A DNA stretch of 64,000 nucleotides from Alphaproteobacteria bacterium (GTDB lineage: Bacteria; Pseudomonadota; Alphaproteobacteria; Reyranellales; JAQSWP01), in NCBI GenBank assembly GCA_029266575.1, contig JAQSWP010000005.1, positions 343 to 64,342 of the forward strand, given 5' to 3'. This document shows, one piece after another, positions 1-19,470 of this stretch. The notes below the pieces were generated by a model that saw only the letters and a program-made list of their open reading frames with translations, was not told where the DNA came from and did not search any database. The position numbers were made by a program, and so were the translations under genes. Within the stretch, counting starts at the first letter, position 1. Each line of letters opens with the position of its first letter.

Positions 1-825
1 CGACGCCGGCAGCAGCAGGCTGAACAGCACCAGCACGGCCGGCGCCAGCCAGCCGCCCACCAGCGCGATCAGCCTCAATTTAGCGGCATGCTTGCGCGCG
101 ATGCGAAAGCCCATCTCCTTGTTGAGATAGTTCTCCTGCGTATGCGGCGCCTCGAACAGCCGCACCTTGCCCAGATGCCCCAGGCCGGTGGCGCTTTCCG
201 CCGTGCTGAACGCCGGCATCGTGTCGATGTAACGCCAGTACAGGAACTTGGTCAGCGCCGCGACCAGCAATGCCAGGCAAGACGCGAATTGCAGGGTCGT
301 CGCGACGGCAGGCGCGAAGACCAGCGCCAGCGCATTGGCCAGCAGTAGGCCGGTTGCCAATCCAAGGACCAAATAGGCCGGTACGACATAGGAATTGTAC
401 CAGGCGCGGATCGGCTTCAGCGAACGATAGATCATGCCGGTGGCGATCACCGTCACCACCGCGCAGATCGCCGACAGCAGTCCCAGCACGACCAGAACGC
501 CCCGCGCGGCGTCGAAGAAGGTGAACAGCAGCGCCAGCAATCCTGCCGGCAGATAGGTGACCACCGCCAACACGCCTTCGCGGCTGAGCCATGAGCTGCG
601 CCACTGGCTGAAGGCGCGCCACGCCCGTTCGGGCCGTCCCAGATGCAGGAAGGACGACAGCAATCCCAAGGTGAACAGAGCAAAGGCGATGCCGAAGCCA
701 ATGAAGCCGGTCCAAAAGGATGGCGTCAGCGCGCCGAACGCAACCAGCAACGCCAGCACGAACAGCAGCCCGTAGCCCGCGCCCGAAGCGACGGTGAAGA
801 TGATGACGGAAAACGCCGGATGCAT
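1..825 (-). CDS. Membrane anchor subunit (DmsC/NrfD-like) of the adjacent Mo-oxidoreductase; C-terminus lies beyond the window start
   Basis: The frame is open to position 1, so it is absent from the ORF track. My own translation from ATG (823-825, minus strand) reads MHPAFSVIIFTVASGAGYGLLFVLALLVAFGALTP...LHLGRPERAWRAFSQWRSSWLSREGVLAV..., with several long hydrophobic helices. It starts 10 nt after the stop of the FeS subunit. Confidence 0.75.
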   Translation of the reverse strand, partial: MHPAFSVIIFTVASGAGYGLLFVLALLVAFGALTPSFWTGFIGFGIAFALFTLGLLSSFLHLGRPERAWRAFSQWRSSWLSREGVLAVVTYLPAGLLALLFTFFDAARGVLVVLGLLSAICAVVTVIATGMIYRSLKPIRAWYNSYVVPAYLVLGLATGLLLANALALVFAPAVATTLQFASCLALLVAALTKFLYWRYIDTMPAFSTAESATGLGHLGKVRLFEAPHTQENYLNKEMGFRIARKHAAKLRLIALVGGWLAPAVLVLFSLLLPAS

Positions 826-835
826 CGTCTGGGTC

Positions 836-1573
836 CTAGCGCGACAGGATGCGGTCGAGCCAGCCCAGCAAGCCGTCGGCCGATTGCTCGACGACCGGCA
901 GAGCCGAGGCGCCGGTGCAGCCGGAACTGTTCTGGCGCTGGCGCGGCGGCAGATATTTGTTGGTCGGCTTGTAGCCCATCTCCGGCATCAGGTCGAAACC
1001 GCCGCGCTCGGCCACCAGCTTCGACACTTTGCTCTCCGGATCGCCCAGATCGCCGAAATGCCGCGCCGAGGCGGGACAGGTCGAGACGCAGGCCGGCACG
1101 CGATCGATCTCCTCCAGGTTTTCGTTGTAGATGCGGTCGATGCACAGCGTGCACTTCTTCATCGTGCCGCCGTCGTAGTCGTATTCGCGCGCACCATAGG
1201 GGCAGGCCCAGGAGCAGAGCTTGCAGCCGATGCAGGTTTCCGGGTTGATCAGCACGATGCCGTCTTCGGCCCGCTTGTAGCTGGCGCCGGTCGGGCAGAC
1301 GGTGACGCAGGCCGGCTCGGCGCAGTGCAGGCACGATTTGGGGAAATGCACGGTGCGGCTGGCATCGCCCTCGCCCGCCTCGAAGCTGTGGATGCGGTTG
1401 AACCACACGCCAGCGGCATCGGCGCCGTAGGGATCGAGATCGGTCAGCGGGCCCGACGTGCCGCCGGTGTTCCATTCCTTGCAGTTCACCGCGCAGGCAT
1501 GGCAGCCGACGCAGGTGTCGAGATCGATCACCAGTCCCAGTTGCTTCTGGGCAAGCGGCGGCAGGCTGGTCAT
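836..1573 (-). CDS. 4Fe-4S ferredoxin-type electron-transfer subunit (DmsB/PsrB/SoeB-like)
   Basis: 245 aa with four Cys clusters (CVGCHACAVNC, CLHCAEPACVTVC, CIGCKLCSWAC, CTLC...PACVSTC). No signal peptide. The start overlaps the stop of the catalytic subunit (1570-1573). Confidence 0.9.
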   Translation of the reverse strand: MTSLPPLAQKQLGLVIDLDTCVGCHACAVNCKEWNTGGTSGPLTDLDPYGADAAGVWFNRIHSFEAGEGDASRTVHFPKSCLHCAEPACVTVCPTGASYKRAEDGIVLINPETCIGCKLCSWACPYGAREYDYDGGTMKKCTLCIDRIYNENLEEIDRVPACVSTCPASARHFGDLGDPESKVSKLVAERGGFDLMPEMGYKPTNKYLPPRQRQNSSGCTGASALPVVEQSADGLLGWLDRILSR

Positions 1574-4314
1574 TTGACGTCTTCCTTGAGATACGGCTCG
1601 GCCATGGCCTTGCCATAGCGCAGCACTTTCTCGGGCCGTTTCATGTTGGGCGGGAGATGCAAAGTCGGCAATGCCGGCAAAGTCTGGCCGGCCGGCGCCT
1701 GCGTCTTCTCGATGCGCACCCGCAGATCGTACCAGGCGGCCTGGCCGGTGACCGGATCGCTGTTGAGATCGCCGCGATTGCCGTCCTGCTCCGGCAGGGT
1801 TTCGGAAATCAGGTGATTGAGCAGGAAGCCCAGTCGCGCTTCAGGCGCATCGGGATCGAGGTTCCAGGCGCCCGAGCGTTTGCCGATCGCGTTCCACGTC
1901 CACACGGTCCGATCGTTGACGCCTTCCATCAGCTTCACCTGGCAGGTGATCTGCCCGTGATGCGAGGTGACGTTGACCCAGTCCTCGTCGACCAGCCCCA
2001 TCGCCGTCGCCGTGGCGCGGTTCATGTGCAGGCGATTGGCGCCGTGGATCTGGCGCAGCCAGGCATTCTGCGAGCCCCAGGCGTGATACATCGCCGCCGG
2101 CCGCTGCGTGATAGCGTAGAACGGAAACTCGCTCTCCTCGATGCGCTGTTGCTCGAACGGGCGGTACCAGATCGGCAGCGGATCGAAATGATCGCGCACC
2201 CGCGCGCGCAGCGCTTCCGGCGGCTGGATGGCGCCATGGCCTTCGGCGGCGAGGCGGAATTTCTGTAGCGGCTCGACATAGAGCTGCAGAACGATCTGGT
2301 CCGGCTTGGCGATGAAGCCCATCTGCACGGCGTGATCGAGATAGGCCTTGTTGGCGTGCTTGTAGTACTGCGCGTTATGCGGCAGCTCGTATTTCCAGAA
2401 GCAGCCATTCTCTATATAGCGCTCAAGCTGGTTGGGGTTGGGCTCGCCCGTCCCCGCCTTGCTGCCATCCGTGCCACGCCAGCCCGCCAGCATGCCGATG
2501 CCCGGCGCGCGCTGGTGGTTGGCCAGATAATCGGCATAGCCGCCGGGGTGCGCGTTGCCGATCGGACGGTCGAGCAGCGAGATGCAATCCCACCGCTCGA
2601 GATACGTCGTATCGGGCAGGATCAGATCGGCATAGGCCACGGTCTCGGAGAAAAAGGCGTCCGAATAGATGATGTGCGGGATGCGGTAGCTGCCGTCCGC
2701 CTTCTTCGCCGTCAGCATCTCGGCCGTGCCGGCGCTGTTCATCGACGAATTCCACGCCATGTTCGACATGAACATAAACAGCGTGTCGATCTCGTACGGC
2801 TCGCCAGCCCAGGCGTTGCGGATCACCATGTGCATCAGCCCATGGTTGGCCATCGGCGCCTGCCACGAATAGGCGCCGTCGATGCGCCGGCCGCTGCCAT
2901 CCTGCTCGACCAGCAGATCTTCCGGACCGATTGGGAAACCCAGCGGCGGGCGCGGCAATGGCTTGCCCGGCGCGACTTCGCCGATCTTGCCGCCGGGACG
3001 CACCCCGATCGGCGCCGGCCGCGGATAGGGCGATTTGTAACGGAAAGCGCCCGGCGTATCGATGGCGCCCAACAGCATCTGCAGCACATGCAGCGCGCGG
3101 CAGGTCTGGAAACCGTTGCTGTGGGCGGAGATGCCGCGCATGGCATGGATCGCCACCGGCCGGCCGATGATGCTCTCGTGCTGCCGCCCGGCCCAGTCGG
3201 TCCAGGCGATTGGCAATTCGATCTGCTGCTCGAACGCGGCATGCGCCAGTTCCGAAGCGATGCGCCTGATCGTCTCGGCCGAGATGCCGGTAATTTCAGC
3301 CGCCTTCTCCGGCGAATGCGACGGATCGAGATAGCGCTCGACCAGCAGCCGCAGCACCGGCCGTGCCATGCGCCCATCCGCCAGCGTGAATTCGCCAGTC
3401 AGGGCCGGCGCGATGTCGGCGCGCAAGGCGGACGTCACCGACTTGCTCATTTGGTCGAAGCACTGCACCTGCCCGTCGGCATCGCGCGCGAACAGCCCGT
3501 GATCGGCGCTGCCCGGCGCATGGATGGTCAGCCACGGCGCGTTGGTGTAGCGCACCAGGAAATCCAGATCGATTTTCTGCGCCTTCAGCAATTCATGGAT
3601 GATCGCCAGGATCAGCGCGCCGTCGGTGCCGGGCCGCACGCCCAGCCATTCGTCGGCGATGGCGGCATAGGCCGTCTTCACCGGATTGACCGCGACGTAC
3701 TTGGCGCCGCGCTCCTTGAGTTTGGCCAGCCCAGCCTTGATCGGATTGCTGTCGTGATCCTCGGCGACGCCGAACATCATGAAATAGCGCGTCTGGTCCC
3801 AATCGGGCTCGCCGAATTCCCAGAAACTGCCGCCGATCGAGTAGAGCCCGGCCGACGCCATGTTGACCGAACAGAAGCCGCCATGGGCGGCATAGTTGGG
3901 CGTGCCAAATTGCTGCGCCCACCAGCCGGTCAGCGCCTGGCTCTGGTCGCGGCCAGTGAAGAAGGCCAGCTTGCGCGGATCCTCGTTGCGGGTCTTGTCT
4001 AGCCACTGCGTGGCCAGGCCCATCGCCTCGTCCCACTCGATTTCCTTGAATTCGCCCGCGCCGCGCTCGCCTACCCGCAGCAGCGGCTTGCTGAGCCGCG
4101 CCGGCGAATAGTGGTTCATGATGCCGGCCGAGCCCTTGCCGCACAGCACGCCCTTGTTTACCGGATGGGCCCTGTTGCCCTCGATGTAGCGGATCGCCCC
4201 GTCCTTCAGATGCACTTTGATGCCGCAGCGGCAGGCGCACATGTAGCAGGTCGTGGTCTTGACCTCGTCGGAGACCGGCGGCGAGAGATTTTCGATCGGG
4301 GCCTGTAGTTTCAT
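1570..4314 (-). CDS. Molybdopterin (bis-MGD) oxidoreductase catalytic subunit, no Tat signal (SoeA-like candidate)
   Basis: 914 aa from ATG 4314 (MKLQAPIENLSPPVSDEVKTTTCYMCACRCG...VLCGKG, an N-terminal FeS-cluster motif), preceded by AGGAA. The 42 extra upstream codons in the ORF track are not hydrophobic and run into the intergenic gap. Confidence 0.85.
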   Translation of the reverse strand: MKLQAPIENLSPPVSDEVKTTTCYMCACRCGIKVHLKDGAIRYIEGNRAHPVNKGVLCGKGSAGIMNHYSPARLSKPLLRVGERGAGEFKEIEWDEAMGLATQWLDKTRNEDPRKLAFFTGRDQSQALTGWWAQQFGTPNYAAHGGFCSVNMASAGLYSIGGSFWEFGEPDWDQTRYFMMFGVAEDHDSNPIKAGLAKLKERGAKYVAVNPVKTAYAAIADEWLGVRPGTDGALILAIIHELLKAQKIDLDFLVRYTNAPWLTIHAPGSADHGLFARDADGQVQCFDQMSKSVTSALRADIAPALTGEFTLADGRMARPVLRLLVERYLDPSHSPEKAAEITGISAETIRRIASELAHAAFEQQIELPIAWTDWAGRQHESIIGRPVAIHAMRGISAHSNGFQTCRALHVLQMLLGAIDTPGAFRYKSPYPRPAPIGVRPGGKIGEVAPGKPLPRPPLGFPIGPEDLLVEQDGSGRRIDGAYSWQAPMANHGLMHMVIRNAWAGEPYEIDTLFMFMSNMAWNSSMNSAGTAEMLTAKKADGSYRIPHIIYSDAFFSETVAYADLILPDTTYLERWDCISLLDRPIGNAHPGGYADYLANHQRAPGIGMLAGWRGTDGSKAGTGEPNPNQLERYIENGCFWKYELPHNAQYYKHANKAYLDHAVQMGFIAKPDQIVLQLYVEPLQKFRLAAEGHGAIQPPEALRARVRDHFDPLPIWYRPFEQQRIEESEFPFYAITQRPAAMYHAWGSQNAWLRQIHGANRLHMNRATATAMGLVDEDWVNVTSHHGQITCQVKLMEGVNDRTVWTWNAIGKRSGAWNLDPDAPEARLGFLLNHLISETLPEQDGNRGDLNSDPVTGQAAWYDLRVRIEKTQAPAGQTLPALPTLHLPPNMKRPEKVLRYGKAMAEPYLKEDVK

Positions 4315-4351
4315 GATTCCTGTTTCCCCGATCCTAACACCGATTTCCCAC

Positions 4352-5743
4352 TCATGGTCGCCACCAGTCGAGCGCCGCCAGATAGAGGCACAGCACTCCA
4401 AAGGCGGCAACGGTAAATGGCCCGTTCCAGACGCGGCCAATCTTCTCAGGCGTCTCGCCGGTCAAGCCGCCGACCAGCACCACCGGCGTGCCGTAAGGCG
4501 AGGAAGCGATCGACAAGGCCGATCCGCCGAGCAGCGCCGTCGCCAGCAGCACCGAGGGCAGCCCGTCGGCCGGCATGTGATGCAGCGAACTGCCGATCAA
4601 AGTCAGCATCACCAGCGAATTGACGCCAAGCTGCCCGACGGCAGCGATAATGAAGGCGAGCGCGATGGCCAGCCCCAGCCAGGGCAGATCGAAACGCACG
4701 ATCAGGTTCTCGATCGCATCCTCCGGCACCAGTGCGGCCAGCACCGAGCCGATATAGGCGGCGTTGCTGAGGATCAGCGTTTCGGAGCGTGACGACGCGA
4801 ACTCGCCCATCGGCCAGCGCGCGACCCGCCGGCTTACCATCGCCGGCATCAGCCGCGGCCCCAGATGGCGGAACTGCACGCCGATCCACAGCATGGCGAA
4901 GACCGGCATCATCAGCATGATGGAATCGACCGTCGTCAGGTTCAGCGCTTTGCTGGCGCCCACCACCAGCACCATGATGCCCAGTAGCACGGCCAGCATC
5001 GGCAGCACCGACTCCGCAAAGCCATGCCGCGCCACGGGCATCTGCACGGAGACGCCCTGCGGGGTGCGCCACTGCGCTCGGTCCATCACCCATCCCAGCG
5101 CCAGGAACAGCAGCGAGAACGTCGCTCCCGCCGGCGCCAGCGCACCCCAGGTCAGGCCCGGGATCAGCGCCAGGGTCAGCGCAATGAGGATGGATAGCGG
5201 CGACCATCCCACCATGGTGCATTGCCCGCGCATCACCGCCAGCATCATACGCTGCTCGCGGATCTTGTACCGGCGCATGTCGCCGCCGGCGCTGGCCAGG
5301 GTGTTGGAGCGCTTGACCATGGTGCCGAGCAGGTTGACCACGCCGTAGTTCAGGATGATGGCGAAGAGATGCGCTGCTGCGGTCAGCGCCGCATAGCGCC
5401 GGCCCGGCGGCTGGGCGATGACGTAGTTGCCGCAACGCCTGACGGCGGCAGACGTGCGCGCCGCATCGCGCAGCATGTTGAGCGCCAGCAGGAAGGTGGA
5501 GAAATAAGCCGCCAGCAGAATTGCTTTGGCGACGATCGGCCACGGCTCCGGCTTCACCACCAGCACCAGCAGGCTCAGCACCAGCGCCGCGCCGGTGAAA
5601 TAGAAATCGCGCCGGTTGGCGACCAGCATGGCGACGGCGACGAACAGCAGGTAGGCGGCGCCGATCAGTAAGCGAAAGCCGATCCAGTCGCTGAACAGCA
5701 TCATCAAGGTCGTCAGCACGATCACCGTCAGCAGGACAGCCAT
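4352..5743 (-). CDS. Polytopic integral membrane protein of unknown function (paralogue of 5776-7209)
   Basis: Only the last 463 codons of the 921-aa ORF (from MAVLLTVIVLTTLMMLFSDW...) look like a real protein. It is helix-rich and hydrophobic and shares a PPGRRY-containing block with its neighbour. The upstream part of that ORF is an alternative frame of the neighbouring gene. Confidence 0.7.
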   Translation of the reverse strand: MAVLLTVIVLTTLMMLFSDWIGFRLLIGAAYLLFVAVAMLVANRRDFYFTGAALVLSLLVLVVKPEPWPIVAKAILLAAYFSTFLLALNMLRDAARTSAAVRRCGNYVIAQPPGRRYAALTAAAHLFAIILNYGVVNLLGTMVKRSNTLASAGGDMRRYKIREQRMMLAVMRGQCTMVGWSPLSILIALTLALIPGLTWGALAPAGATFSLLFLALGWVMDRAQWRTPQGVSVQMPVARHGFAESVLPMLAVLLGIMVLVVGASKALNLTTVDSIMLMMPVFAMLWIGVQFRHLGPRLMPAMVSRRVARWPMGEFASSRSETLILSNAAYIGSVLAALVPEDAIENLIVRFDLPWLGLAIALAFIIAAVGQLGVNSLVMLTLIGSSLHHMPADGLPSVLLATALLGGSALSIASSPYGTPVVLVGGLTGETPEKIGRVWNGPFTVAAFGVLCLYLAALDWWRP

Positions 5744-5775
5744 CGCACGACGATGAAGCGACAGCCCGCGAGCGG

Positions 5776-7209
5776 TCACAGCGCGCCGCCCTGCATCATG
5801 TGGAAGCCGACGATGACAACGGTCGAGATCACGATGCAGCCGAAGGCATAGAAGCCGTTGTCGCGCCACGCCATGCTCCAGTTCGACTGACCCAGCATGT
5901 TGGCGGCATAAAGCGTCAGGTTGGAGAGCGGCGACAGCACGCCGCCGATGCCCCAGCTCGCCAGCATCAGGAGCGCCATGGTTTGCTGCGACAAGCCGAT
6001 GGCGGCCGGCGGCAAGGTATGGCCGATGATGACGATCATGATCACCGAATGCAGGCCGAGAATCGAGGTGGCGGCGATCACGAACATCAGGAAGGGAATC
6101 CACAGCACGCCGGAGACGCCGATCTTCGACGCCGCCGCCACCAGCAGCTGGCCGTCGACGGCGCTGGACACGCCCTGGCCGAAAATATTGGCGGCGATGA
6201 ACAGCACCGACAGCCCGCGCAAGCCGCCGACATTGTCGACCAGGCTGGAACCGTACTCGCTCCAGCTCACGCGCGGCACGCCCGGCGTTCTGGTCGCCGC
6301 CAGAATCAGGAACCAGCCGAGCGAAAACACCGTCACGACAATGGCGATGGTGGCCGACATCGACAGATGCGCAATGGCGTCGAAAGCTGCGACCGCGCCG
6401 ACCAGGATCAGCGACAGCGCGGCAAGCTTGAGCATCGCCGCCTGCTTGCCCTCGATCACCACCGGCACGCGCGCCTCTTCGACCGTATCGCCGCGCTTGC
6501 CGAAGCGGTCGCAGACGGCGCCGAAGACGATCAGCAACATGCCGAGCACAATGCCCGGGGCGGCGATGTCGACCCAGCGCAAGGTCGGCATCAGCGACAC
6601 CACCACGGCCATGGCGAGGAAGAACGGCGACCAGGTGGAAGCGGCAACGAAACCGCGCGACAGCGCCAGCGCCATCCGCTTGCGCAATTCGCCCGCGGCG
6701 CTTGAGGCAACGAAACTCGCCAGCAGCGCGAAGCCGGCGAAATTGGTGATGGCGGAAAGGAAATGGCTGGCCAGGCTGAGCCAGAGATAGCGCCGGCCGG
6801 GCGGCAGATTGGTGACGATGATGCGCACCACCTGCATCGACGGGCTGCGGATCGCGGGATATTGCAGCAGGGTCACCGAGGCGAACAGCAGGATGAACAT
6901 CAACGTGCCGCGGCCGCCTTGCCACAGCGCGCTTGCCACCTTGTCTCTCATCGCCGCGAGCGCGATGCCGGCTGCGATCAGCGCCAGCCCCATGATCCAT
7001 TGCGAGCGCAGCACCTTGCGCGGCTCGGACACGATATAGAGCAGGAGAAAACCGACGGCAAAGCGATCCAGCCCGATGCCGGGAAACAGTCCCTCGCCCA
7101 CCGCCAGCACGCAGCATGCCAGGCAGGCCAGGGCGCCGACACGCGCGGCCAGCCGGCGGGATTTCGCTGTCCCGATGTCCTCCGTTGCCGTCTGCACCGC
7201 CTGGCTCAC
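5776..7209 (-). CDS. Polytopic integral membrane protein of unknown function (paralogue of 4352-5743)
   Basis: 477 aa with many hydrophobic segments. The GTG start lies 2 nt after the stop of the upstream ligase. Contains the block IVTNLPPGRRYLWLSLASHFLSAITNFAG. Confidence 0.75.
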   Translation of the reverse strand: MSQAVQTATEDIGTAKSRRLAARVGALACLACCVLAVGEGLFPGIGLDRFAVGFLLLYIVSEPRKVLRSQWIMGLALIAAGIALAAMRDKVASALWQGGRGTLMFILLFASVTLLQYPAIRSPSMQVVRIIVTNLPPGRRYLWLSLASHFLSAITNFAGFALLASFVASSAAGELRKRMALALSRGFVAASTWSPFFLAMAVVVSLMPTLRWVDIAAPGIVLGMLLIVFGAVCDRFGKRGDTVEEARVPVVIEGKQAAMLKLAALSLILVGAVAAFDAIAHLSMSATIAIVVTVFSLGWFLILAATRTPGVPRVSWSEYGSSLVDNVGGLRGLSVLFIAANIFGQGVSSAVDGQLLVAAASKIGVSGVLWIPFLMFVIAATSILGLHSVIMIVIIGHTLPPAAIGLSQQTMALLMLASWGIGGVLSPLSNLTLYAANMLGQSNWSMAWRDNGFYAFGCIVISTVVIVGFHMMQGGAL

Positions 7210-7211
7210 GA

Positions 7212-8870: not shown

Positions 8871-10501
8871 CAACGCGACCCCGTCCGCTTCAGTGCCACG
8901 CCCAAAGTTTCGGAGGCCAGCTCGCGCAACTTGAACTTCTGCACCTTGTCGGTGCCCGAGGTCAGCGGGAAACTTTCGACGAAAATGACGTGGCTCGGCA
9001 CTTTGAACGAGGCCAGATTCTGACGCGCAAACTCGATCAGCTCCGATTGCATCGGCCGCGCGCCGGGCTTGGGGATGACGAAGGCCACGCCCATGTCGCC
9101 CAGTTCCGGATGCGGCAGCCCGACCAGCGAAGCGTTGGCCACCATCGGATGCTTACGCAGCAAGGTCTCGATCTCGGCGGGCGAGACGTTGAAGCCTTTG
9201 GTTTTGTAGCCGTCACCAAGCCGGCCCTCGAACACCAGCCGCCCGTCGGGGCGCAGATAGCCCTGGTCGCCGGTATGGAACCAGCCCTCGCCATCGACGG
9301 CCTTGGCCGTTTCGACCGGCTTGTTGTAGTAGCCCTTCATGATGCAGTAGGAGCGCGCCCAGATCTCGCCGCTCTCGCCCACCGGCACGTCTTCGCCGGT
9401 CTGCTGGTCGATGATCCTGATTTCGACGTCGGGCAACGGCTTGCCCTGGTTGTCGATGCGCTCCTCCAGCGGCTCGTCCCAGCGGTTGCGGGTCAGCACC
9501 GTGGTGCTTTCCGTCAGGCCATAGCCGGTCATCATGCCGGGGATTGCCAAATCCCTCGCCACTTTCATCAGCACGTCGTGATCGGCGCTCAACACCATGG
9601 CGATGCGCATGGAGGACAGGTCGTAATCCTTGCGTTTGGGATGCTCCAGCAATGCGGTGATCATTGGCGGCAGCAAATGCGTCACGGAGCAGCGTTCGTT
9701 CTGCCAGTCCTTCATTGCCTGCTCGGCATCGAAGCGGTCGGCGATCACCACGCCGCCGCCCCTGATCCATACCGGATAGACGCCGTTCATGCTGGCCATC
9801 GAACCGAACATCGGGATGGCGAGATAGAACTTGTCCCTTTCCGTCATGTCGACCGGCGTGCCGATATCCCACGCCTTGCGCCAGACGCAATGGGTGATCA
9901 TGGCGCCTTTGGGCAGCGCGGTGGTGCCGGAGCTGTAGGAAATCAGCGCCGGCTGGTCGGGATCGGTGGCGTAAGGCGGCACCGGCAGATCCCGCGTCAG
10001 CCCGTCCGACCAGTCGGTGACGCCCGGCAGTTTGGCGCGGTCGTAAGAATCGATGGCGATGACGTGCTGCATCATCGGCAGCGCCGCAATCTGCAATTTG
10101 CCCGGCTGCATCAACTCGGGGCACAATTCCGCCAGGTCGCCCAGGAAATCGCGGAAGGCGGCATCGCCCGGCACGATGACGACGCGGCTGTCGGACTGGC
10201 GCAATTGATAGGCGAACTCCTCCAGCCGCAGGCGGGTGTTGAGGATCACCGGCACCAGCCCCATCTGCGCCGCGCCCAGCAAATACCAGAGATATTCCGG
10301 CCGGTTCGGCAGCCAGATCGAGATCGTGCTCCCCGGTTCCAGACCTAAAGTCGCCAGCCGCCCGGAAGCGCGGTCGACCAGCTTCTTGACGTCGGAAAAA
10401 TTCCAGCGCTGGTCGCGATAGACCAGCGCCTCGTTGGTCGGGAACGTCCTGGCCATGTAGTCGATAGCCTGGGCATAGGTCTTGCCGGCGAACTGATTCA
10501 C
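8870..10501 (-). CDS. AMP-forming acyl-CoA ligase, family member 2
   Basis: 543 aa with YSSGTTALPKGAMITH and GYGLTE. GTG start 10501 overlaps the upstream stop by 4 nt. Confidence 0.9.
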   Translation of the reverse strand: MNQFAGKTYAQAIDYMARTFPTNEALVYRDQRWNFSDVKKLVDRASGRLATLGLEPGSTISIWLPNRPEYLWYLLGAAQMGLVPVILNTRLRLEEFAYQLRQSDSRVVIVPGDAAFRDFLGDLAELCPELMQPGKLQIAALPMMQHVIAIDSYDRAKLPGVTDWSDGLTRDLPVPPYATDPDQPALISYSSGTTALPKGAMITHCVWRKAWDIGTPVDMTERDKFYLAIPMFGSMASMNGVYPVWIRGGGVVIADRFDAEQAMKDWQNERCSVTHLLPPMITALLEHPKRKDYDLSSMRIAMVLSADHDVLMKVARDLAIPGMMTGYGLTESTTVLTRNRWDEPLEERIDNQGKPLPDVEIRIIDQQTGEDVPVGESGEIWARSYCIMKGYYNKPVETAKAVDGEGWFHTGDQGYLRPDGRLVFEGRLGDGYKTKGFNVSPAEIETLLRKHPMVANASLVGLPHPELGDMGVAFVIPKPGARPMQSELIEFARQNLASFKVPSHVIFVESFPLTSGTDKVQKFKLRELASETLGVALKRTGSR

Positions 10502-12120
10502 GACGCGACCTTCTCCCGCGCCAGAACCTGCAGCGCCAGTTCCCGCAGCTTGAATTTCTGAATCTTGCCGGTGCCCGCCGTCACCGGGAATTCCTCGACG
10601 AAGAACACGTGCGCCGGCACCTTGAAGGAGGCGAGTTTCGCCTTGGCGAATTCGATGATCTCCTGCTCGCTGGCCTTGATGCCCTGTTTGCGAATGACGA
10701 ACGCAGCGCCAACGGCGCCGAAGCGGGCATGCGGCAGGTCGGTGACGCTCACCGCCGCGATCGCCGGATGCCTGGCCAGGCTGGCCTCGACCTCCGCCGT
10801 CGCGACATTGAAGCCGTTATGCTTGTAGCCATCCTTGACCCGGCGCAGGAACTTGATGGTGCCGTCGGCGCGATGGATGCCGAGATCGCCGGTCTTGAAC
10901 CAGTCACCGTCGGCGAAAGCGCGCCTGGTCTCTTCCGGCTTGTTGTAATAGCCCAGCATGACGTTATAGCCGCGTACCTGGATCTCGCCTTCCTCGCCAC
11001 GCTGCAGCACGGCATTGCTATCGGGATCGGCCACCCGCACTTCAATATCCGGCAGCACCTTGCCGTGGGCGTTGATGCGATCTTCCAGCGGCTCGTGCCA
11101 GTAGCTGCGCGTCGCCGCCGACGACGTCTCGGTCATGCCATAGGAGGTGAAAACCTCTTTCATGCCCAGCTCGTTGGCCGCCTTGCGAAACACCACCGGG
11201 TCGATGGTCAGCACGATGCCGGTGCGCAGGCGCGACAGATCGTAGGACTTGAAATCCGCATGCTCCAGCATCTTGTCGATCATCAGCGGCAGCACATACA
11301 CGGCCGTGCACTGGCGATCCTGCAGGATCTGCAGCGTTTCCGTGGCATCGAAACGATCGTCGAGGATAACGCTGGAGCCGCGCGACCAGAAGGTCAGCAC
11401 GCCATTGATGCTGCTCAGGATGCCGAACATCGGCACGCAGAGATAAAGCCGGTCCTGCGCCGTCTGATTGAAGCGCTCGCCGTGATCCCAGGCCTTGCGG
11501 AAGACGCTGTGATTGAGCATGGCGCCCTTGGGCAGCGCCGTGGTGCCGGACGAATAGGCGATCAGCGATGCCGCCAGCGGATCGGTCGCCAGAGGCGCCG
11601 GCGGCAGATCGCCCATCGGCTTCGACCAGTCGGTAACGCCTTTGTATTTGGGATCAAACGCATCCAGCGCCACGACAGAGCGCAGCTTGGGCAACGCCGC
11701 GCAATCGAGCGCGCCCGGCTTGCCGTTGAGCAGCTCCGGACACACACCGGCGAGATCACCGAGGAAGTCTCGGTAGTCGGTGCCGCCCGGCACGATCACC
11801 GCTGTGCTGTCGGACTGGTCGATCTGGTAGGTGAATTCTTCCGGCTGCAGGCGGGTGTTCAGCGTCACCGCCACCGCGCCGATCTGTCCCGCCCCCAGCC
11901 AGTACCAGAGAAACTCCGGCCGGTTGGGCAGCCACACCGCCACCTTGTCGCCTTCGCGAATGCCGATGCTGTAGAGCCGCGCCGCGGCGCGTTCGATCTC
12001 GGTCCTGACGTCGATGAAGCTCCAGTCGCGGCCCTTGAACGACAGCGCGAGGCGCTCGCCGTGCTGTCTGGCCAGCAGCGCGATCGATTGGCCGGTGGTC
12101 AGACCCTTGAACGGATTCAT
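10498..12120 (-). CDS. AMP-forming acyl-CoA ligase, family member 3
   Basis: 540 aa with YSSGTTALPKGAMLNH and SYGMTE. ATG 12120 overlaps the hydrolase stop (ATGA). Confidence 0.9.
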   Translation of the reverse strand: MNPFKGLTTGQSIALLARQHGERLALSFKGRDWSFIDVRTEIERAAARLYSIGIREGDKVAVWLPNRPEFLWYWLGAGQIGAVAVTLNTRLQPEEFTYQIDQSDSTAVIVPGGTDYRDFLGDLAGVCPELLNGKPGALDCAALPKLRSVVALDAFDPKYKGVTDWSKPMGDLPPAPLATDPLAASLIAYSSGTTALPKGAMLNHSVFRKAWDHGERFNQTAQDRLYLCVPMFGILSSINGVLTFWSRGSSVILDDRFDATETLQILQDRQCTAVYVLPLMIDKMLEHADFKSYDLSRLRTGIVLTIDPVVFRKAANELGMKEVFTSYGMTETSSAATRSYWHEPLEDRINAHGKVLPDIEVRVADPDSNAVLQRGEEGEIQVRGYNVMLGYYNKPEETRRAFADGDWFKTGDLGIHRADGTIKFLRRVKDGYKHNGFNVATAEVEASLARHPAIAAVSVTDLPHARFGAVGAAFVIRKQGIKASEQEIIEFAKAKLASFKVPAHVFFVEEFPVTAGTGKIQKFKLRELALQVLAREKVAS

Positions 12121-12992
12121 GCGCGGCCCTCGAGCGCCTGCAGGAGGGCCGCGTTCACCGCTTCCGGCTCCTCATACATCACCCAGTGGCCGGCGCCTTC
12201 GATCAGGCAGGTTTCCAGCCTGGGAAAACGTTCTTTCATCCGCTGCAGGCAGGTCCTGACATCGGGGTTCATGTAGCAATCGTGTTCGCCGAACAGCATG
12301 ATCGCCTTGTGCGCGATCTGGTCCAGCGCATCGAACATGGTGGTCGAGGTCGAGATCGGCATGCCCAGCAGGGACCGCTTCTGCGCCAGAAGCTTGCGCT
12401 GCACGTCGATCGCCTGGTCGTCGATCTTGCCGCGGTCATGGATCATCGACAGCGCCAAATTCTCGCGCACGATGGCGCGCACCTGATCCAGGCTCATGCT
12501 GCGGCTGAGCTTCTGCAGCTCATGCGTCTTGTTCGCCCACATCTCGCCCATGCCGGACGCGCCCAGCACCACCACCGCGCCGGCTTTATTGCCGAGCAGC
12601 GCGGTAGCATGAGCGGCGATGGAGGAACCCAGCGAGAATGCCGCCAGCAGGACTTCCTGCGGACCGGAATCGAGCTGCTTCACCGCTTGCGCGAAATAAT
12701 GCGCCAGCGCCGGCGCCGTGTGCGGCTGCGGCGCAGCGGGCGAATCGCCCAGGCCCGGCAGGTCGGCGGCGAAGACGCGGTGGTTCGCGGCAAGCCCGTC
12801 GATGTTGCGCAGCCAGTGCTTCCAGGAGCCGAAGCCGCCATGCAGCAGGAAGATCGCGGACCCTTGCGCGCCCCATTGCCGCCAGGCGATGTAGTTCTCG
12901 CCGCACGGTGTGCGGTGTAGCCGCGCGGTGCGCTCGAGCCGGTCTTCCAGCGCGTGGATCTGCGGCGCAGCCTGTTGCTGCTCAGCGAGCAT
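12117..12992 (-). CDS. Alpha/beta-fold hydrolase
   Basis: Only the last 291 codons of the 409-aa ORF look protein-like (MLAEQQQAAPQIHALE...). They carry FLLHGGFGSW, the nucleophile elbow AFSLGS and a C-terminal GAGHWVMYEEPE. The start overlaps the end of the rhodanese gene by 11 nt. Confidence 0.8.
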   Translation of the reverse strand: MLAEQQQAAPQIHALEDRLERTARLHRTPCGENYIAWRQWGAQGSAIFLLHGGFGSWKHWLRNIDGLAANHRVFAADLPGLGDSPAAPQPHTAPALAHYFAQAVKQLDSGPQEVLLAAFSLGSSIAAHATALLGNKAGAVVVLGASGMGEMWANKTHELQKLSRSMSLDQVRAIVRENLALSMIHDRGKIDDQAIDVQRKLLAQKRSLLGMPISTSTTMFDALDQIAHKAIMLFGEHDCYMNPDVRTCLQRMKERFPRLETCLIEGAGHWVMYEEPEAVNAALLQALEGRA

Positions 12993-14574
12993 GATCCGCG
13001 TGCTTCTCGTATTTGTGGCCGAGCTTAATCTCCCAGTCGAGATAGCGCAGCATGCCCTCGCGGCCCTGCTCGTAAGGCGGCAGCCAGAAATCGGGACCAC
13101 CGAAAGTTTCCGTCGGCTTGCCCTTCTCCAGCGCCAAACCGGCATCGCGCCAGGCCTTGGTGCCGCCTTCCAGCACCTTGACGTTCTTGTAGCCCAGATC
13201 GTGCAAGGTGGCGGCGGCGAACACCGACTGCCCCTCTTCCGACGCCGTGACGATGATCGGATCGGCGGGCGAGGCCACGTCCTTGATGATGTTCTCCAGC
13301 CAGCCGCGCGGGCGCCACTTGGCGCCGGGCAAATGGCCGGCGGCATATTGCAGGCTGGCGCCGACGTCGAGCACCAGATGCTTGCCTGCCTTCACGAGCT
13401 GGTCGATCTCGGCCGGCTTCAGCTTGGTGACTTTCTTCGCCGCCTCGTCGATGCCCAGCGGCTTGGGATGCTTGCGGCCCGCCACCAGCTTCTCGCCGGC
13501 TGCCGTCCAGGCATCGACGCCGCCTTTGAGCACGAATACCTTCTCCATGCCCATGCGACGATACCAGTAGCCGGTCATCATGGCGCGGGCTTCGTTCTGG
13601 TCGATCAGCACCACGGTGGCGTCGCGCACCAGCACGAAATCGTCGGTGCGCTGCACCGCCTGGCCGCCCGGCAGCGAGATCGTGCCGTCGATATGGCCGG
13701 CCTGGTAGGATTTCAACGGGCGGACGTCGAAGACATAGATGTTCTGTGTCTTGCTGGCCGGGATCAGCTTCTTGAGTTCGGCCTGGTCGATATGGCGGAC
13801 GCCGAATTCCTTGCCCAGCCTGGCCGCTTCGGCCTCGGCCTTGGCGATGCTGTCCTTGCTTGGCTCGCCGACCGGCCTGGCCTCGCCCTTTTCCAGCTTG
13901 CCATCTTCCAGCAGCCAGCCGGACGTGCCGTTCTCCAGCGCGAAAACGTTCTTGAAGCCCAGCCGGTGCAGGCTGGAGGTGCCGATGATGCTGCGGGTGC
14001 GGCCGGCGCAATTGACCACGATGGTCGAGTAGTCCTTCGCCAGATCGGCCGCCTTCAGTGCGATGTCGAAGCTCGGGCAGCTCACCGCTCCCGGCAGATG
14101 GCCGCCGAGGAATTCCTCCGGCGTACGCACGTCGCAGGTGACGACCTTGGGATCCTTGGCCATCTTGGCGTATTCGGTGACGGTGATCGAGGGCACATGC
14201 TCGACGACATGGATCATCTCGCCGAAATCCTTCGACGGCACGTTGGTGCCGGTCATGATCTCGCCGCCCGCTTCCTTCTCCCACGCCGGCAGGCCGCCCT
14301 TGATCTCCTGGGCGTTGGCGTAACCGATGGCATGCAGGGTCTTCAGCGCCAGCTCGGCGCGATTGTCCTGGCCGCCGCCATAGATGAAGACGCGCGTCTG
14401 CTTGTCCGGCACCAGTTCGGCCATGCGGAATTCGATCAGCCGGCGCGGCAGGGTCGAGGCGCCGAAGATATGGCCGTCGACCGTCTCGCCCTTCTCGCGC
14501 ACGTCGAACAGCGCCCAGTCGCGCGCTTTCGCGTCATAGAGTTTCTTGAAATCCTTGGCGCTGATAGTGCTCAT
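12982..14574 (-). CDS. Multi-domain rhodanese-like sulfurtransferase (four rhodanese repeats, one catalytic Cys)
   Basis: 530 aa with four repeats of the rhodanese pattern (..FDVR....GH(I/L)PGA....). Only repeat 2 carries an active-site loop (VVNCAGRTRSI). Confidence 0.85.
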   Translation of the reverse strand: MSTISAKDFKKLYDAKARDWALFDVREKGETVDGHIFGASTLPRRLIEFRMAELVPDKQTRVFIYGGGQDNRAELALKTLHAIGYANAQEIKGGLPAWEKEAGGEIMTGTNVPSKDFGEMIHVVEHVPSITVTEYAKMAKDPKVVTCDVRTPEEFLGGHLPGAVSCPSFDIALKAADLAKDYSTIVVNCAGRTRSIIGTSSLHRLGFKNVFALENGTSGWLLEDGKLEKGEARPVGEPSKDSIAKAEAEAARLGKEFGVRHIDQAELKKLIPASKTQNIYVFDVRPLKSYQAGHIDGTISLPGGQAVQRTDDFVLVRDATVVLIDQNEARAMMTGYWYRRMGMEKVFVLKGGVDAWTAAGEKLVAGRKHPKPLGIDEAAKKVTKLKPAEIDQLVKAGKHLVLDVGASLQYAAGHLPGAKWRPRGWLENIIKDVASPADPIIVTASEEGQSVFAAATLHDLGYKNVKVLEGGTKAWRDAGLALEKGKPTETFGGPDFWLPPYEQGREGMLRYLDWEIKLGHKYEKHADHAR

Positions 14575-14628
14575 GACTGCCTCGCGGAAAATGTCGGAAA
14601 GGGAGAAGAACGCGCCGATGGCCAGCGC

Positions 14629-15789
14629 CTAGTTCTTCTTCCGCTGATCGTTCTTCCGGCCGAGGATTTCGGCCGCGATCATGTTCTTGTGGATCTGCAC
14701 CGTGCCGCCATAGATCGAGCCGCCGCGCACTTCGGTGTAGCGCTGCACCATCGGGTAATCCTTGGTGTAGCCGTTGGCGCCCAGGATCTGCAGCGCATCG
14801 TCGCAGATCTCCTTGGCCGCATTGGCCGTGTAGACCTTGGCGATCGAGGTCTCGAGCCGGTCCGGCAGGCCGGTGTCGCCCGCCCCGGCGGCCGCGCGAT
14901 AGGTCAGGAGCTTGGCGGCATCGAGCTTGATGCGCATGTCGGCCAGCATCCATTGCAGGCCCTGGAAATCGGCGATCTCGCGGCCGAACTGTTTGCGCTC
15001 CTTGGCATAGGCAAGCGCATATTCGTAAGCCGCCTGCGCCGAGCCCAGCATGCGCGAGATGCTGCCCAGCCGCTCGCCGTTATAGATGCTGATCAGTTTG
15101 CCGAAGGCGTTCTCGCGGATCAGGATGTTCTCGACCGGCACCTTGCACTCGTCGAAATAGAGTTCGAACAGCAATTCGTCGGCCATGTTGATGGTGCCGT
15201 TGGAGCGGGTGAAGCCCGGCGCATCGTGCGGCACGATGACGGCGCCGATATCCTTGGCCGAGCCGGTGTCGGCCAGCCGGCAATAGAGCACGGTGTAGTC
15301 GTTGGCGTTGACGGCGCTGACGAACTGCTTGTGGCCCTTGATGACGACGTGGTCGCCGACGATGCGCCCCTTGGTCTTCATCTCGGTGGCGGCGGAACCT
15401 GCTTCCGGCTCGGTGATGCCGATGGAAATGCCGATCTCGCCGGCGGTGGAGCGCTTGACCAGCTCCTTCTGCTTCTCGTTGCCCAGCTTGGCGATGGCGC
15501 CGACCGCGCCGGTCGAGGAGCGATGCGCGATGCTGCCGATCGCCGAATCGCAGGCCTGCAGGGTCTGGGTCAGCAGCAAGGTGTCGAGCAGCGGCAGGCC
15601 CGAGCCGCCCAGCTCGACCGGCATGTTGACGCCCAGCAGCCCGTAATGCGCCATTTCCTTGCGCAGCTTCCTGGTGCCATCGGCCGAATGCACGTCGTTG
15701 TTGTCGATGAACGGCTTCAGCTTGCGCGCATAGACTTCCCTGGCTGACTCGATCAGTTGCTGCTGGCGTTCATTGATGGCGAAATCCAT
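14629..15789 (-). CDS. Acyl-CoA dehydrogenase
   Basis: 386 aa with ACAD-fold signatures (GITEPEAGSA, KQFVS, GANGYTKDYPMVQRYTEVRGGSIYGGT). A Glu sits at the isovaleryl-CoA-dehydrogenase-like position (YNGERLGS). First gene of the long minus-strand operon. Confidence 0.85.
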   Translation of the reverse strand: MDFAINERQQQLIESAREVYARKLKPFIDNNDVHSADGTRKLRKEMAHYGLLGVNMPVELGGSGLPLLDTLLLTQTLQACDSAIGSIAHRSSTGAVGAIAKLGNEKQKELVKRSTAGEIGISIGITEPEAGSAATEMKTKGRIVGDHVVIKGHKQFVSAVNANDYTVLYCRLADTGSAKDIGAVIVPHDAPGFTRSNGTINMADELLFELYFDECKVPVENILIRENAFGKLISIYNGERLGSISRMLGSAQAAYEYALAYAKERKQFGREIADFQGLQWMLADMRIKLDAAKLLTYRAAAGAGDTGLPDRLETSIAKVYTANAAKEICDDALQILGANGYTKDYPMVQRYTEVRGGSIYGGTVQIHKNMIAAEILGRKNDQRKKN

Positions 15790-15851
15790 CGTCCCTACCC
15801 CTTTTCAGCCATGGATTTGGGGCCGACAACAGCCCGTTCCGCTAGCTTCTT

Positions 15852-15860
15852 GATACAAAT
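15852..15860. promoter_or_regulatory. GATACAAAT half-site of the recurrent TTGTATC/GATACAA motif, upstream of the ACAD operon
   Basis: Read directly in the 484-nt divergent intergenic region. Next to it is the palindrome ACAATTGT (15865-15872). Confidence 0.3.
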
Positions 15861-19428: not shown

Positions 19429-19470
19429 TTGGAGCCTGGCGGCGGCCGGGGTAAGCTTGCTCCGAGTCCG

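Follow-up and report, generated by a model that had tools for sequence, protein, structure and literature searches.

Which substrate would call for acyl-coenzyme A (CoA) ligases, a rhodanese, membrane carriers, and a sulfite-oxidizing type of molybdenum (Mo) enzyme in a single row of genes? The question is raised by positions 1-15789 of a 64,000-nucleotide stretch of an alphaproteobacterial assembly (GCA_029266575.1, contig JAQSWP010000005.1, positions 343 to 64,342); this whole stretch is called the window below. A reading made from the letters alone (the sequence-only reading) had described an eleven-gene operon here and proposed an undescribed organosulfur-acid pathway. We found eleven consecutive genes on the minus strand, none with an internal stop, and the intergenic distances run from -11 to +54 nt, within the limit of 54 nt given by that reading. 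Our answer to the question, which we regard as an even call, is that the operon serves the catabolism or detoxification of one or more sulfur-bearing carboxylic acids and ends in cytoplasmic sulfite oxidation. The features of the operon, in the order of transcription, are as follows.

14629-15789, minus strand: ACAD1, a flavin adenine dinucleotide (FAD)-dependent acyl-CoA dehydrogenase (ACAD), probably of the IVD type, with all three ACAD domains in Pfam.
14602-14642, minus strand: G+C-rich stem-loop over the ACAD stop codon and the 54-nt gap, from a scan for terminator-like structures.
12982-14574, minus strand: four-domain rhodanese of the 1yt8 type (Pfam Rhodanese, four matches).
12117-12992, minus strand: alpha/beta-fold serine hydrolase (Pfam Abhydrolase_1/6).
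10498-12120, minus strand: Lig1, AMP-forming acyl-CoA ligase (Pfam AMP-binding and AMP-binding_C).
8870-10501, minus strand: Lig2, paralogous AMP-forming acyl-CoA ligase (Pfam AMP-binding and AMP-binding_C).
7212-8870, minus strand: Lig3, paralogous AMP-forming acyl-CoA ligase (Pfam), with ATG at 8870 and a 1-nt overlap with the Lig2 stop.
5776-7209, minus strand: Mem1, predicted anion transporter of the Ion-Transporter-superfamily (elevator) fold (AlphaFold2 model and Foldseek).
4352-5779, minus strand: Mem2, distant Mem1 paralogue, with a GTG start overlapping the Mem1 stop.
1570-4314, minus strand: SoeA-like catalytic subunit of the Mo-bis(pyranopterin guanine dinucleotide) (Mo-bisPGD) type (Pfam Molybdop_Fe4S4, Molybdopterin, and Molydop_binding).
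836-1573, minus strand: SoeB-like iron-sulfur subunit with DmsB-type 4Fe-4S dicluster domains (Pfam Fer4_11 and other Fer4 families).
1-825, minus strand: SoeC-like quinone-interacting membrane anchor, interrupted at the window edge after 275 of about 316 codons (Pfam PF04976, DmsC).

The labels that the sequence-only reading had given to these genes match the Pfam assignments. Six junctions overlap or abut at start and stop (12982-12992, 12117-12120, 10498-10501, 8870, 5776-5779, and 1570-1573), which suggests translational coupling; five of these positions had been listed correctly before, and the one at 5776-5779 had been missed. The window has a G+C content of 62-65%, and spurious open reading frames (ORFs) on the opposite strand are therefore numerous; third-position G+C of 0.75-0.89 singles out the minus-strand gene set.

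A genome scan with the Mem1 alignment covered one genome per species and 185,579 species. The output comprised seven loci, all in alphaproteobacterial metagenome-assembled genomes (MAGs), whose taxonomic labels are Reyranellaceae, 'Hyphomicrobiales', Rhodospirillaceae, or Alphaproteobacteria. In six of these loci, gene set and order agree with the window operon as far as the contigs extend. Identity to the window proteins in these six genomes is 66-88% for Mem1 and Mem2, 82-90% for Lig1, 83-95% for SoeB, and up to 93-96% for the ACAD. Since the same genes stand in the same order in six other species-level genomes, where the membrane protein shares 70-85% identity with that of the window, the arrangement is not due to chance, and the synteny check proposed by the sequence-only reading came out in its favor. 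soeABC starts 31-80 nt after the transporter genes in seven genomes, with the order kept, and the anchor gene is the end of the operon: the next gene is a convergent ligase gene in loci L007, L009, and four further loci (the loci compared are numbered with an L throughout). In GCA_964458605.1 and GCA_039933495.1 the operon is expanded to 13 genes: another ACAD-fold gene, the second of the operon, stands behind the ligases, and the membrane paralogues number three. Locus L018, on the same contig as the 13-gene locus L010, is one of the six and carries an extra membrane-protein copy, 53% identical. All carriers of the full operon are uncultured MAGs, from soil and water, and the exact rhodanese protein of the window is also found on three metagenome contigs with the same neighbors. 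What is new here is this conserved operon, which physically joins CoA activation, sulfur transfer, transport, and sulfite oxidation.

The sulfur end of the proposed route is marked by the last three genes, which annotation transfer and architecture assign to a Tat-less SoeABC-type sulfite:quinone oxidoreductase, Tat standing for twin-arginine translocation. The Mo subunit shares 64-90% identity with the best 120 homologues listed, many of which the Joint Genome Institute (JGI) has named 'sulfite dehydrogenase (quinone) subunit SoeA'; identity to these JGI-named proteins is 64-68%. Its N terminus, MKLQAPIENLSPPVSDEVKTTTCYMCAC, has neither an RR motif nor a hydrophobic h-region. The start is the ATG at 4314 (MKLQAPIENL...), and twelve homologues begin likewise. 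A Tat signal hidden in a longer, 956-aa ORF with a TTG start ('WRRS') was rejected, as homologues start at MK.QAPIENL and the extension is not conserved. Read from the sequence, an N-terminal 4Fe-4S motif has the form Cys-X2-Cys-X3-Cys-X27-Cys (CYMCACRC, 27 residues, C). The subunit genes follow the order A-B-C, and the operons of L007, L009, and L010 end with the same trio, with a C subunit of 316-319 aa. SoeB is a four-cluster beta subunit, DmsB-like in NCBIfam with a score below the cutoff. The nearest solved structure to the Mo subunit, polysulfide/thiosulfate reductase PsrA, matches only the N-terminal third, and matches to other Mo-enzyme clades are confined to that third as well. The subunit order, the lack of a Tat signal, the Cys motif, the DmsB-like beta subunit, and the DmsC/NrfD-type anchor together match the literature description of SoeABC, which has been characterized as a sulfite:quinone oxidoreductase (PMC8076601). 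The sequence-only reading, which called this enzyme Tat-less and pointed to SoeABC, is supported to this extent. A SoeA 73% identical to that of the window stands alone among unrelated neighbors in another MAG, which argues that soeABC is an ordinary module recruited into the operon.

In this MAG the catalytic domain of SoeA is incomplete. The window protein (MDF3072521.1) has 914 aa, compared with 958-965 aa in aligned homologues and 958-959 aa in the 12 other full-length members of its 90% cluster. The difference is an in-frame deletion of 135 bp (45 codons) relative to every aligned homologue, with its junction at 2539-2556; the deleted segment (GPGDAIRQPVVKPDRDVRPFQDVL..LG.RLGLPG) is conserved in 6/6 aligned homologues, and the PF00384 match ends at profile position 321 of 353. 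The deletion may be an assembly artefact of the MAG or a variant within the population, or it may have cost the enzyme its function. An intact orthologous soeABC lies, for example, on CAYLYK010000001.1.

The two membrane proteins had been described as paralogous and of unknown kind. They are indeed distant paralogues (32% identical over 176 aa). The pair matches no Pfam or NCBIfam family, and none of nine other sampled relatives has a Pfam match. The structure model, in contrast to the label 'unknown', predicts them to be transporters with the elevator fold of the Ion-Transporter superfamily. Mem1 was modelled with AlphaFold2 from 26 sequences, and the model is confident (pLDDT 86, pTM 0.85). 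At E <= 0.001, Foldseek matched it to 34 entries of the Protein Data Bank (PDB), every one a carrier of anions or acids and all of a single fold class, which we take to be the Ion-Transporter superfamily of elevator-type carriers: VcINDY/DASS, sulfate carrier NaS1, the SiaQM system of the tripartite ATP-independent periplasmic (TRAP) type, isethionate carrier IseQM, ArsB, AbgT-type proteins, and Pho90. Beyond these 34 the probability drops to <=0.33. The matches to isethionate and sulfate transporters, as far as the model goes, are consistent with a sulfur-bearing substrate. A word-indexed search found only 43 relatives, whereas a profile search of 1.84 billion representatives yielded 1,938 at the threshold of E <= 0.001, of which 594 also pass E <= 1e-30. 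Given this number and the lack of a Pfam match in Mem1, Mem2, and nine other members, the proteins form an undescribed transporter family of moderate size.

The neighborhoods of distant Mem homologues (L012-L015) are unrelated contexts and uninformative; in one unrelated genome, a distant pair of 504 and 474 aa also stands in tandem (L012/L013, 6487-9425). Such tandem pairs hint at hetero-oligomers. A diverged MAG locus, L021, has a Mem homologue (49%) together with a TauD gene, biotin carboxylase, an SfnB-like ACAD-fold gene, a short-chain dehydrogenase/reductase (SDR), a MocR regulator, and a four-domain rhodanese. As to direction, it is a serious possibility, short of an even chance, that Mem1 and Mem2 export the sulfate or sulfite of the pathway, as TauE, Pse, and TauZ do in known sulfonate pathways, and that nearby ATP-binding cassette (ABC) or TRAP systems take up the substrate. 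The Mem genes lie directly upstream of soeA in 7/7 genomes, sulfate carrier NaS1 and arsenite exporter ArsB are among the fold matches, and the Mem homologue of L021 is next to TauD, a sulfite-releasing type of enzyme; moreover, cultured carriers of the core genes described below use TRAP or Opp-type ABC uptake instead, and SBP_bac_5 and NMT1 binding proteins abound in the window. However, two or three conserved, diverged paralogues fit several organic substrates better than one inorganic anion, the nearest fold matches are mostly organic-acid importers, and distant members of the family lie in unrelated contexts.

ACAD1 is where a known pathway could enter. Among solved structures it comes closest to the 3-sulfinopropionyl-CoA desulfinase of Advenella mimigardefordensis (PDB 5af7, E 1e-59), and among NCBIfam models the one for that desulfinase, NF042439, scores best; the source record labels ACAD1 'acdA', and UniRef calls some close homologues 'desulfinase'. 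The operon could thereby be read as a variant of the pathway for 3-mercaptopropionate, 3,3'-dithiodipropionate (DTDP), and 3,3'-thiodipropionate (TDP), in which a ligase would activate 3-sulfinopropionate, ACAD1 would be the desulfinase, and SoeABC, already suggested for this role in the known pathway (PMC6370202), would oxidize the sulfite. The active site speaks otherwise. The desulfinase lacks the catalytic Glu of dehydrogenases (PMC9293079), whereas Glu239 of ACAD1 is invariant in 120/120 of its best homologues (59-97% identical). In ACAD1, the desulfinase residues R84, Q246, and G366 correspond to S86, E239, and G361, and in 118 of the same 120 homologues the Arg84-equivalent position is Gly, Ala, or Ser, and Arg in none. 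The paper on the AcdDPN7 structure reportedly names Gln246 and Gly366 as the relevant desulfinase positions and Arg84 as essential for holding the sulfinate. The NF042439 score of 274.7 bits also falls far below the cutoff of 600. In addition, no cupin or cysteine dioxygenase of the Mdo type, Act CoA-transferase, or SucCD was found among the scanned window ORFs, those below about 230 aa not having been scanned exhaustively. With both active-site tests failing, the 3-sulfinopropionate pathway is unlikely, and we rate it as the least probable of the explanations considered here.

A monooxygenase of the DszC/SfnB type was rejected as well: the scores of ACAD1 reach 38 bits with SfnB, whose cutoff is 431, and 29 bits with DszC, and Glu239 is present. 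The sequence-only reading had offered the desulfinase and the DszC/MsuC/SfnB-type enzymes as models for this protein, and neither held. Because Glu239 is invariant and the Arg84 position is never Arg, ACAD1 is most likely a dehydrogenase, probably a genuine one of the IVD type as judged from its residues. A His89-Arg90 pair, invariant or nearly so among the best 120 homologues, may lie near the acyl-binding pocket and might hold an anionic group. The subfamily is large and found in Alpha- and Betaproteobacteria, and the automatic labels 'acdA' and 'desulfinase' on it are probably wrong.

The rhodanese aligns over residues 16-522 with PDB 1yt8, a 'thiosulfate sulfurtransferase' of Pseudomonas aeruginosa (E 1e-81). 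Four domains had been claimed for it, and Pfam finds four; a catalytic role falls to one only. The active-site loop VNCAGRTRSIIGT is in domain 2 and identical to that of 1yt8, and in domains 1, 3, and 4 this loop position is occupied by residues other than Cys. With the Cys loop confined to domain 2, the protein has a single catalytic site, and the other domains are probably structural or binding.

A rhodanese next to SoeABC also admits an inorganic reading, an analogue of Dsr or sHdr: sulfane sulfur from thiosulfate or a persulfide would pass from the rhodanese to an acyl-adenylate, giving a thioacid or acyl-persulfide carrier, and would then become sulfite and, through SoeABC, sulfate. Rhodanese and SoeABC are the usual pairing in cytoplasmic sulfur oxidation, and adenylation followed by attack of a rhodanese persulfide is established thiocarboxylate chemistry in the MoeB/ThiF systems. 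The window rhodanese scores against NCBIfam models of MoeB/MoeZ-linked rhodaneses, and SoeABC is, as cited above, a characterized sulfite:quinone oxidoreductase. Nonetheless, the ligases are ANL-type CoA ligases and not E1-like; the scanned window ORFs include no carrier protein, DsrE/TusA, Hdr, or Dsr gene and no enzyme for the four-electron oxidation of sulfane sulfur to sulfite; and the ACAD, the hydrolase, the carboxyltransferase described below, and the beta-oxidation partners in relatives point to carbon catabolism. We consider this module improbable, marginally less so than the 3-sulfinopropionate variant.

The alpha/beta hydrolase is a candidate thioesterase, esterase, or C-C hydrolase. 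By eye, its motifs FSLGS, GEHD, and GHW are consistent with a Ser-Asp-His triad, and its PDB matches are weak (HsaD and BphD, hydrolases of meta-cleavage products; E 1e-10). Lig1, Lig2, and Lig3 are 47-51% identical to one another and 45-57% identical to two more paralogues that the window encodes (28848-30515 and 43893-45773). All three contain full-length AMP-binding and AMP-binding_C domains (E 1e-69 to 1e-75), with 4-coumarate and fatty-acid ligases as the best structures; every NCBIfam match is below its curated cutoff. Each has its own orthologue, 71-91% identical, in other genomes, and the duplication is therefore old, with each copy retained.

Outside the lineage of the full operon, a core of ACAD, rhodanese, ligase, carboxyltransferase, and flavoprotein recurs in the cultured Roseovarius indicus (L023; CP031598.1, 1,999,213-2,018,370) and Thalassospiraceae strain LMO-JJ14 (L025; CP134604.1, 1,140,866-1,162,020). 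ACAD1 is 68% identical to its counterpart in R. indicus and 71% in LMO-JJ14; in both, a MaoC-like hydratase and a rhodanese of four domains (41% and 44%) come after the ACAD, with a MocR regulator and a ligase (52-53%) nearby. The carboxyltransferase orthologues near ACAD1 at these loci are 59-66% identical and the flavoproteins 59-67%. LMO-JJ14 has, in addition, an SDR, a thiolase accompanied by a DUF35 protein, and the hydrolase (40%, beside the rhodanese). The ACAD of Pandoraea commovens (L024) belongs to a gene row that also encodes an SBP_bac_5/Opp ABC system, an SfnB-like ACAD-fold protein, two MaoC proteins, a ligase, a thiolase, and a flavin reductase. No soeABC or Mem gene lies within 9-10 kb at the R. 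indicus, LMO-JJ14, and Pandoraea loci.

These cultured carriers bring in the principal rival, a sulfur-independent CoA pathway for a branched, alicyclic, or dicarboxylic acid, resembling Liu/Atu or beta-oxidation, with the rhodanese and soeABC as co-located housekeeping genes. It would suit a true IVD-type dehydrogenase and the absence of soeABC beside the core in cultured strains. It would also suit the surroundings of the core in L023 and L025, namely carboxyltransferase, biotin carboxyl carrier protein (BCCP), biotin carboxylase, enoyl-CoA hydratase (ECH), MaoC, thiolase/DUF35, and SDR, as well as the family matches of the KstD, HsaD, FadD3, and HsaA types, which are typical of alicyclic degradation. 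On the other hand, the four-domain rhodanese shares the transcription unit of ACAD1 in every genome examined except Pandoraea, the close and ordered attachment of soeABC to the transporter genes is conserved in seven genomes, and TauD, SsuA-like, and SfnB-like genes are enriched in the window and in L021. We therefore regard a sulfur-independent pathway as unlikely, while giving it more weight than the two sulfur-based alternatives above.

Upstream of ACAD1, a control region separates the operon from a divergent unit.

15790-16273, no strand assigned: divergent control region with conserved AT-rich operator-like boxes (four-genome alignment).
16152-16171, 16065-16081, 15868-15897, and 15847-15859, no strand assigned: boxes in the control region (invariant columns).
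16274-17818, plus strand: carboxyltransferase of the acyl-CoA carboxylase/decarboxylase 12S type (Pfam Carboxyl_trans).
17857-19428, plus strand: FAD_binding_2 flavoprotein, KstD-, fumarate-reductase-, or TcuA-like (Pfam).
19429-20202, plus strand: GntR/FCD-family regulator (Pfam GntR and FCD).

The boxes, inverted repeats included, are invariant in four genomes, and the surrounding spacer has diverged; they are candidate operators for a GntR-type regulator, and the GntR/FCD protein is a candidate regulator of both divergent units. Two ORFs in the spacer (15811-16089, plus strand; 15795-16046, minus strand) have no Pfam match and were judged spurious. The carboxyltransferase, whose best NCBIfam score is against MmdA and below the cutoff, occupies the same position in L001, L007, L009, L016, L017, and L020, and in L001 the flavoprotein and the GntR/FCD regulator keep their positions too. 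A sigma-70 consensus scan of 1-16400 gave no match, and an Rfam search of 1-26000 gave no riboswitch or other known RNA.

Within the operon, the sequence-only reading had noticed no internal terminator hairpin, and here it needs correcting: the stem-loop at 14602-14642 is a hairpin, and counterparts of different sequence follow the ACAD gene in L007, L009, and L010. It has no clean U-tract and a folding energy no better than that of shuffled controls (z-scores not significant), so that it is no more than a candidate for a partial terminator, a processing site, or a stabilizer. It may set the expression of the ACAD at a different level from that of the ten downstream genes.

The remainder of the window contains the following features.

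21828-24700, 27665-30515, and 53568-57080, minus strand: pairs of an AMP-ligase and an SfnB/DszC-like ACAD-fold protein (Pfam/NCBIfam).
25748-25948, plus strand: biotin-carrier-like protein (66 aa, SMKM motif), standing alone.
30493-32681: two SsuA/NMT1-like binding proteins.
50574-51398 and 58558-59490: two TauD-family dioxygenases.
32849-34231, plus strand: MocR-type regulator (GntR and aminotransferase-like).
34253-35170, minus strand: SDR.
37055-41907 and 46412-53461: seven SBP_bac_5 binding-protein genes and one Opp-type permease/ATPase set.

Two of the ACAD-fold proteins of these pairs, 21828-22997 and 27665-28966, and the extra gene ACADb of the L010 operon score 91-108 bits against SfnB/DszC-type models, all below the cutoff. 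Lys or Arg replaces the dehydrogenase Glu in 21828-22997 and in ACADb. The pairing with a ligase recurs in the 13-gene variant (L010) and in Pandoraea (L024), and suggests flavin monooxygenases that would act on acyl-CoA or acyl-adenylate. The protein of 27665-28966, which adjoins a sixth ligase paralogue and two SsuA/NMT1-type binding proteins, is a 61% identical orthologue of the extra ACAD-fold gene in the 13-gene variant, and this ties the side modules to the operon. The TauD that adjoins the Mem homologue in L021 shares 73% identity with one window TauD; the SsuA-like and TauD genes mark the whole window as an island of organosulfur utilization. The ACAD1/rhodanese cluster of LMO-JJ14 contains orthologues of the window MocR (46%) and SDR (71%), which makes it probable that the functional unit reaches well past the eleven genes. 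The biotin-carrier-like protein is 44-50% identical to the BCCP beside the carboxyltransferase in R. indicus and LMO-JJ14. Searched with the proteins of L021, L023, and L024, the 64-kb window yielded only this BCCP-like gene and the two TauD genes, and no MaoC hydratase, ECH, thiolase, flavin reductase, or biotin carboxylase; these enzymes, if needed, would be encoded elsewhere in the genome.

A PrpD-like protein is also encoded in the window. Seven binding proteins for one Opp-type transporter is an unusual multiplicity, and the SBP_bac_5 gene at 46412-47308 appears truncated, covering the first 207 domain positions only. An ATP-dependent DNA ligase gene (LigD/LigC-like; 59481-60575, minus strand) lies between a TauD gene and an EamA transporter gene, with no evident metabolic tie. 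A full-length DUF993 protein (E 1e-189; 62667-63827, minus strand) is encoded beside a xylose-isomerase-like TIM-barrel protein and an EamA transporter.

Gene content, conservation, folds, and active-site residues are what our analysis reads directly; from these we infer the chemical steps, the substrate, and the direction of transport in the scheme that follows. Mem1 and Mem2 would move an anion across the membrane, most likely the acid substrate inward, or alternatively sulfate or sulfite outward. The three paralogous AMP-forming ligases would form CoA thioesters, and ACAD1 would introduce a 2,3 double bond, its His89-Arg90 pair perhaps holding the anionic group of the substrate. In later steps, encoded partly outside the operon and possibly involving the MaoC hydratase, thiolase, SfnB-like flavin monooxygenases, and biotin-dependent carboxylase seen in relatives, the sulfur group would become sulfite. 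By one route, a 3-sulfo- or 3-thio-acyl-CoA would be dehydrogenated and hydrated to an unstable alpha-hydroxy-sulfonate or hemithioacetal, from which sulfite or a thiol would be lost; by another, the SfnB-like enzymes would desulfonate the acyl-CoA oxygenolytically. The single-cysteine rhodanese could handle a sulfane, thiosulfonate, or persulfide intermediate, and the hydrolase could cleave a thioester, ester, or C-C bond. SoeABC would oxidize sulfite to sulfate at the cytoplasmic face and pass the electrons to quinone. The GntR/FCD regulator probably governs both divergent units through the conserved boxes.

The sulfur in this scheme is suggested by the constant pairing of ACAD with rhodanese, which persists in distant genomes, the recruited soeABC, the SfnB-like, TauD, and SsuA-like neighbors, and the kinship of ACAD1 with the desulfinase. 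Organosulfur-acid catabolism has been linked with a rhodanese-domain protein and with a molybdopterin oxidoreductase or SoeABC for the removal of sulfite (PMC5373536, PMC6370202). The conserved operon, the architecture of SoeABC, the sulfonate-type genes of the window, and the rhodanese beside the ACAD make sulfite a reasonable end product, as the sequence-only reading had proposed; the sulfur-releasing enzyme that its pathway requires was not found in the operon.

Several points weigh against this scheme. The operon has no recognized C-S-cleaving or sulfur-oxygenating enzyme, and no signature of a thiol dioxygenase, Xsc, persulfide dioxygenase, or desulfinase was found in it. ACAD1 looks like an ordinary dehydrogenase, and the ligases, with NCBIfam scores below cutoff, offer no clue to the substrate. 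An IVD-type ACAD accompanied by carboxyltransferase, BCCP, and enoyl-CoA hydratase recalls the way in which leucine and acyclic terpenes are degraded, a logic for beta-branched acids that has no need of sulfur. The MaoC hydratase, thiolase, flavin reductase, and biotin carboxylase of the scheme are absent from the 64-kb window, and the SoeA of this MAG, being without a conserved 45-residue segment, may be inactive. With neither soeABC nor a Mem gene near the core in its cultured carriers, sulfite need not be a product of the core pathway. The evidence is also genomic throughout, with every full-operon carrier an uncultured MAG.

A more specific proposal is possible, which we hold to be less likely than not: with the modules next to it, the operon may specify a CoA-dependent pathway not described before, whose sulfur-containing acid could be a sulfo-carboxylate or a thio-acid, cyclic or beta-substituted. 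Its enzymology would then be new in four respects: an IVD-type dehydrogenase as the sister group of the desulfinases, SfnB/DszC-like flavin monooxygenases acting on acyl-CoA thioesters from a dedicated ligase family, a four-domain rhodanese with a single Cys as part of the pathway, and a new carrier family of the Ion-Transporter superfamily. If this is true, SoeABC would feed electrons from sulfite into the quinone pool, and the sulfur of the substrate would yield energy as well. We know of no complete aerobic degradation route for 3-sulfopropionate, surfactant-derived sulfo-carboxylates, or thio-dicarboxylates, and the genes of lipoate and biotin catabolism are not known to have been identified.

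The operon, with soeABC as the marker of the sulfur end product and an uncharacterized transporter family, provides a defined set of candidate genes. Taken singly, the families are familiar ones, the transporter by its fold, and the sequence of acid, CoA ester, sulfite, and SoeABC has precedents in sulfoacetate metabolism and in the studies of Advenella and Variovorax. Besides the operon itself, the new elements are an ACAD subfamily probably mislabelled as desulfinase, an undescribed transporter family, and the recurring ligase/SfnB-like pairs. That no characterized pathway has this gene combination, as the sequence-only reading put it, stands within the literature searched, where only proteomics by the Steinbuechel group on DTDP, TDP, and mercaptosuccinate came up; the core, however, is far more widespread than the operon, and elsewhere it has no adjacent soeABC. 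Because the core is present in R. indicus, LMO-JJ14, and Pandoraea commovens, which are cultured and genetically accessible, the hypothesis is directly testable.

Set beside known systems, the carriers resemble the Ion-Transporter superfamily (DASS/VcINDY, SLC13 NaS1, TRAP DctM/SiaQM, IseQM, ArsB, and AbgT) in predicted fold, with TM-scores of 0.5-0.62 and a Foldseek probability of 1.0, and the matched carriers all transport anions or organic acids; Mem1 and Mem2 differ in being 10-16% identical to their structural matches and in occurring as tandem paralogues. The rhodanese is like the PA2603-type protein (1yt8) in length, in its four tandem domains, and in the domain-2 loop, but the second Cys, at the domain-4 loop of 1yt8, is Ala here. 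PA2603 presumably adjoins the 3-mercaptopropionate dioxygenase PA2602.

With the Liu (leucine/isovalerate) and Atu (acyclic terpene) pathways, the relatives of the operon share an IVD-type ACAD together with carboxyltransferase, biotin carrier, biotin carboxylase (L023), enoyl-CoA hydratase, ligase, and SDRs, a logic for passing a beta-substituent. In contrast to those pathways, no gene of the 3-hydroxy-3-methylglutaryl-CoA lyase type was seen around the core, the carboxyltransferase scores best against MmdA (below cutoff), and a rhodanese, SfnB-like oxygenases, flavin reductase, and, in the window, soeABC are attached. The DTDP/TDP/3-mercaptopropionate pathway of A. mimigardefordensis and Variovorax paradoxus is alike in leading from an acid through a CoA thioester to sulfite and its oxidation, possibly by SoeABC; the desulfinase AcdDPN7/AcdA (5af7) shares the ACAD fold and is the closest solved structure to ACAD1, and rhodanese-domain genes accompany the related thiol dioxygenases. 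The differences are that ACAD1 has the catalytic Glu and no Arg84, that an Mdo dioxygenase is lacking here, that SucCD or the Act CoA-transferase there takes the place of the AMP-forming ligases here, and that the genes of that pathway are not arranged with soeABC or Mem-type transporters.

Finally, the Mo enzyme agrees with SoeABC of Allochromatium vinosum and Aquifex aeolicus, also annotated in Ruegeria pomeroyi, in the gene order A-B-C, a Tat-less Mo-bisPGD subunit of about 960 aa in the orthologues, the N-terminal 4Fe-4S Cys motif, a ferredoxin-like dicluster beta subunit, and an NrfD/DmsC-type anchor, with sequence identity (64-68%) taken to JGI-labelled SoeA proteins. The alpha subunit in this MAG differs by its 45 missing residues. 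The setting differs as well: known soeABC genes stand alone or with dsr, shdr, or sox genes, whereas here they belong to a CoA-dependent catabolic operon.

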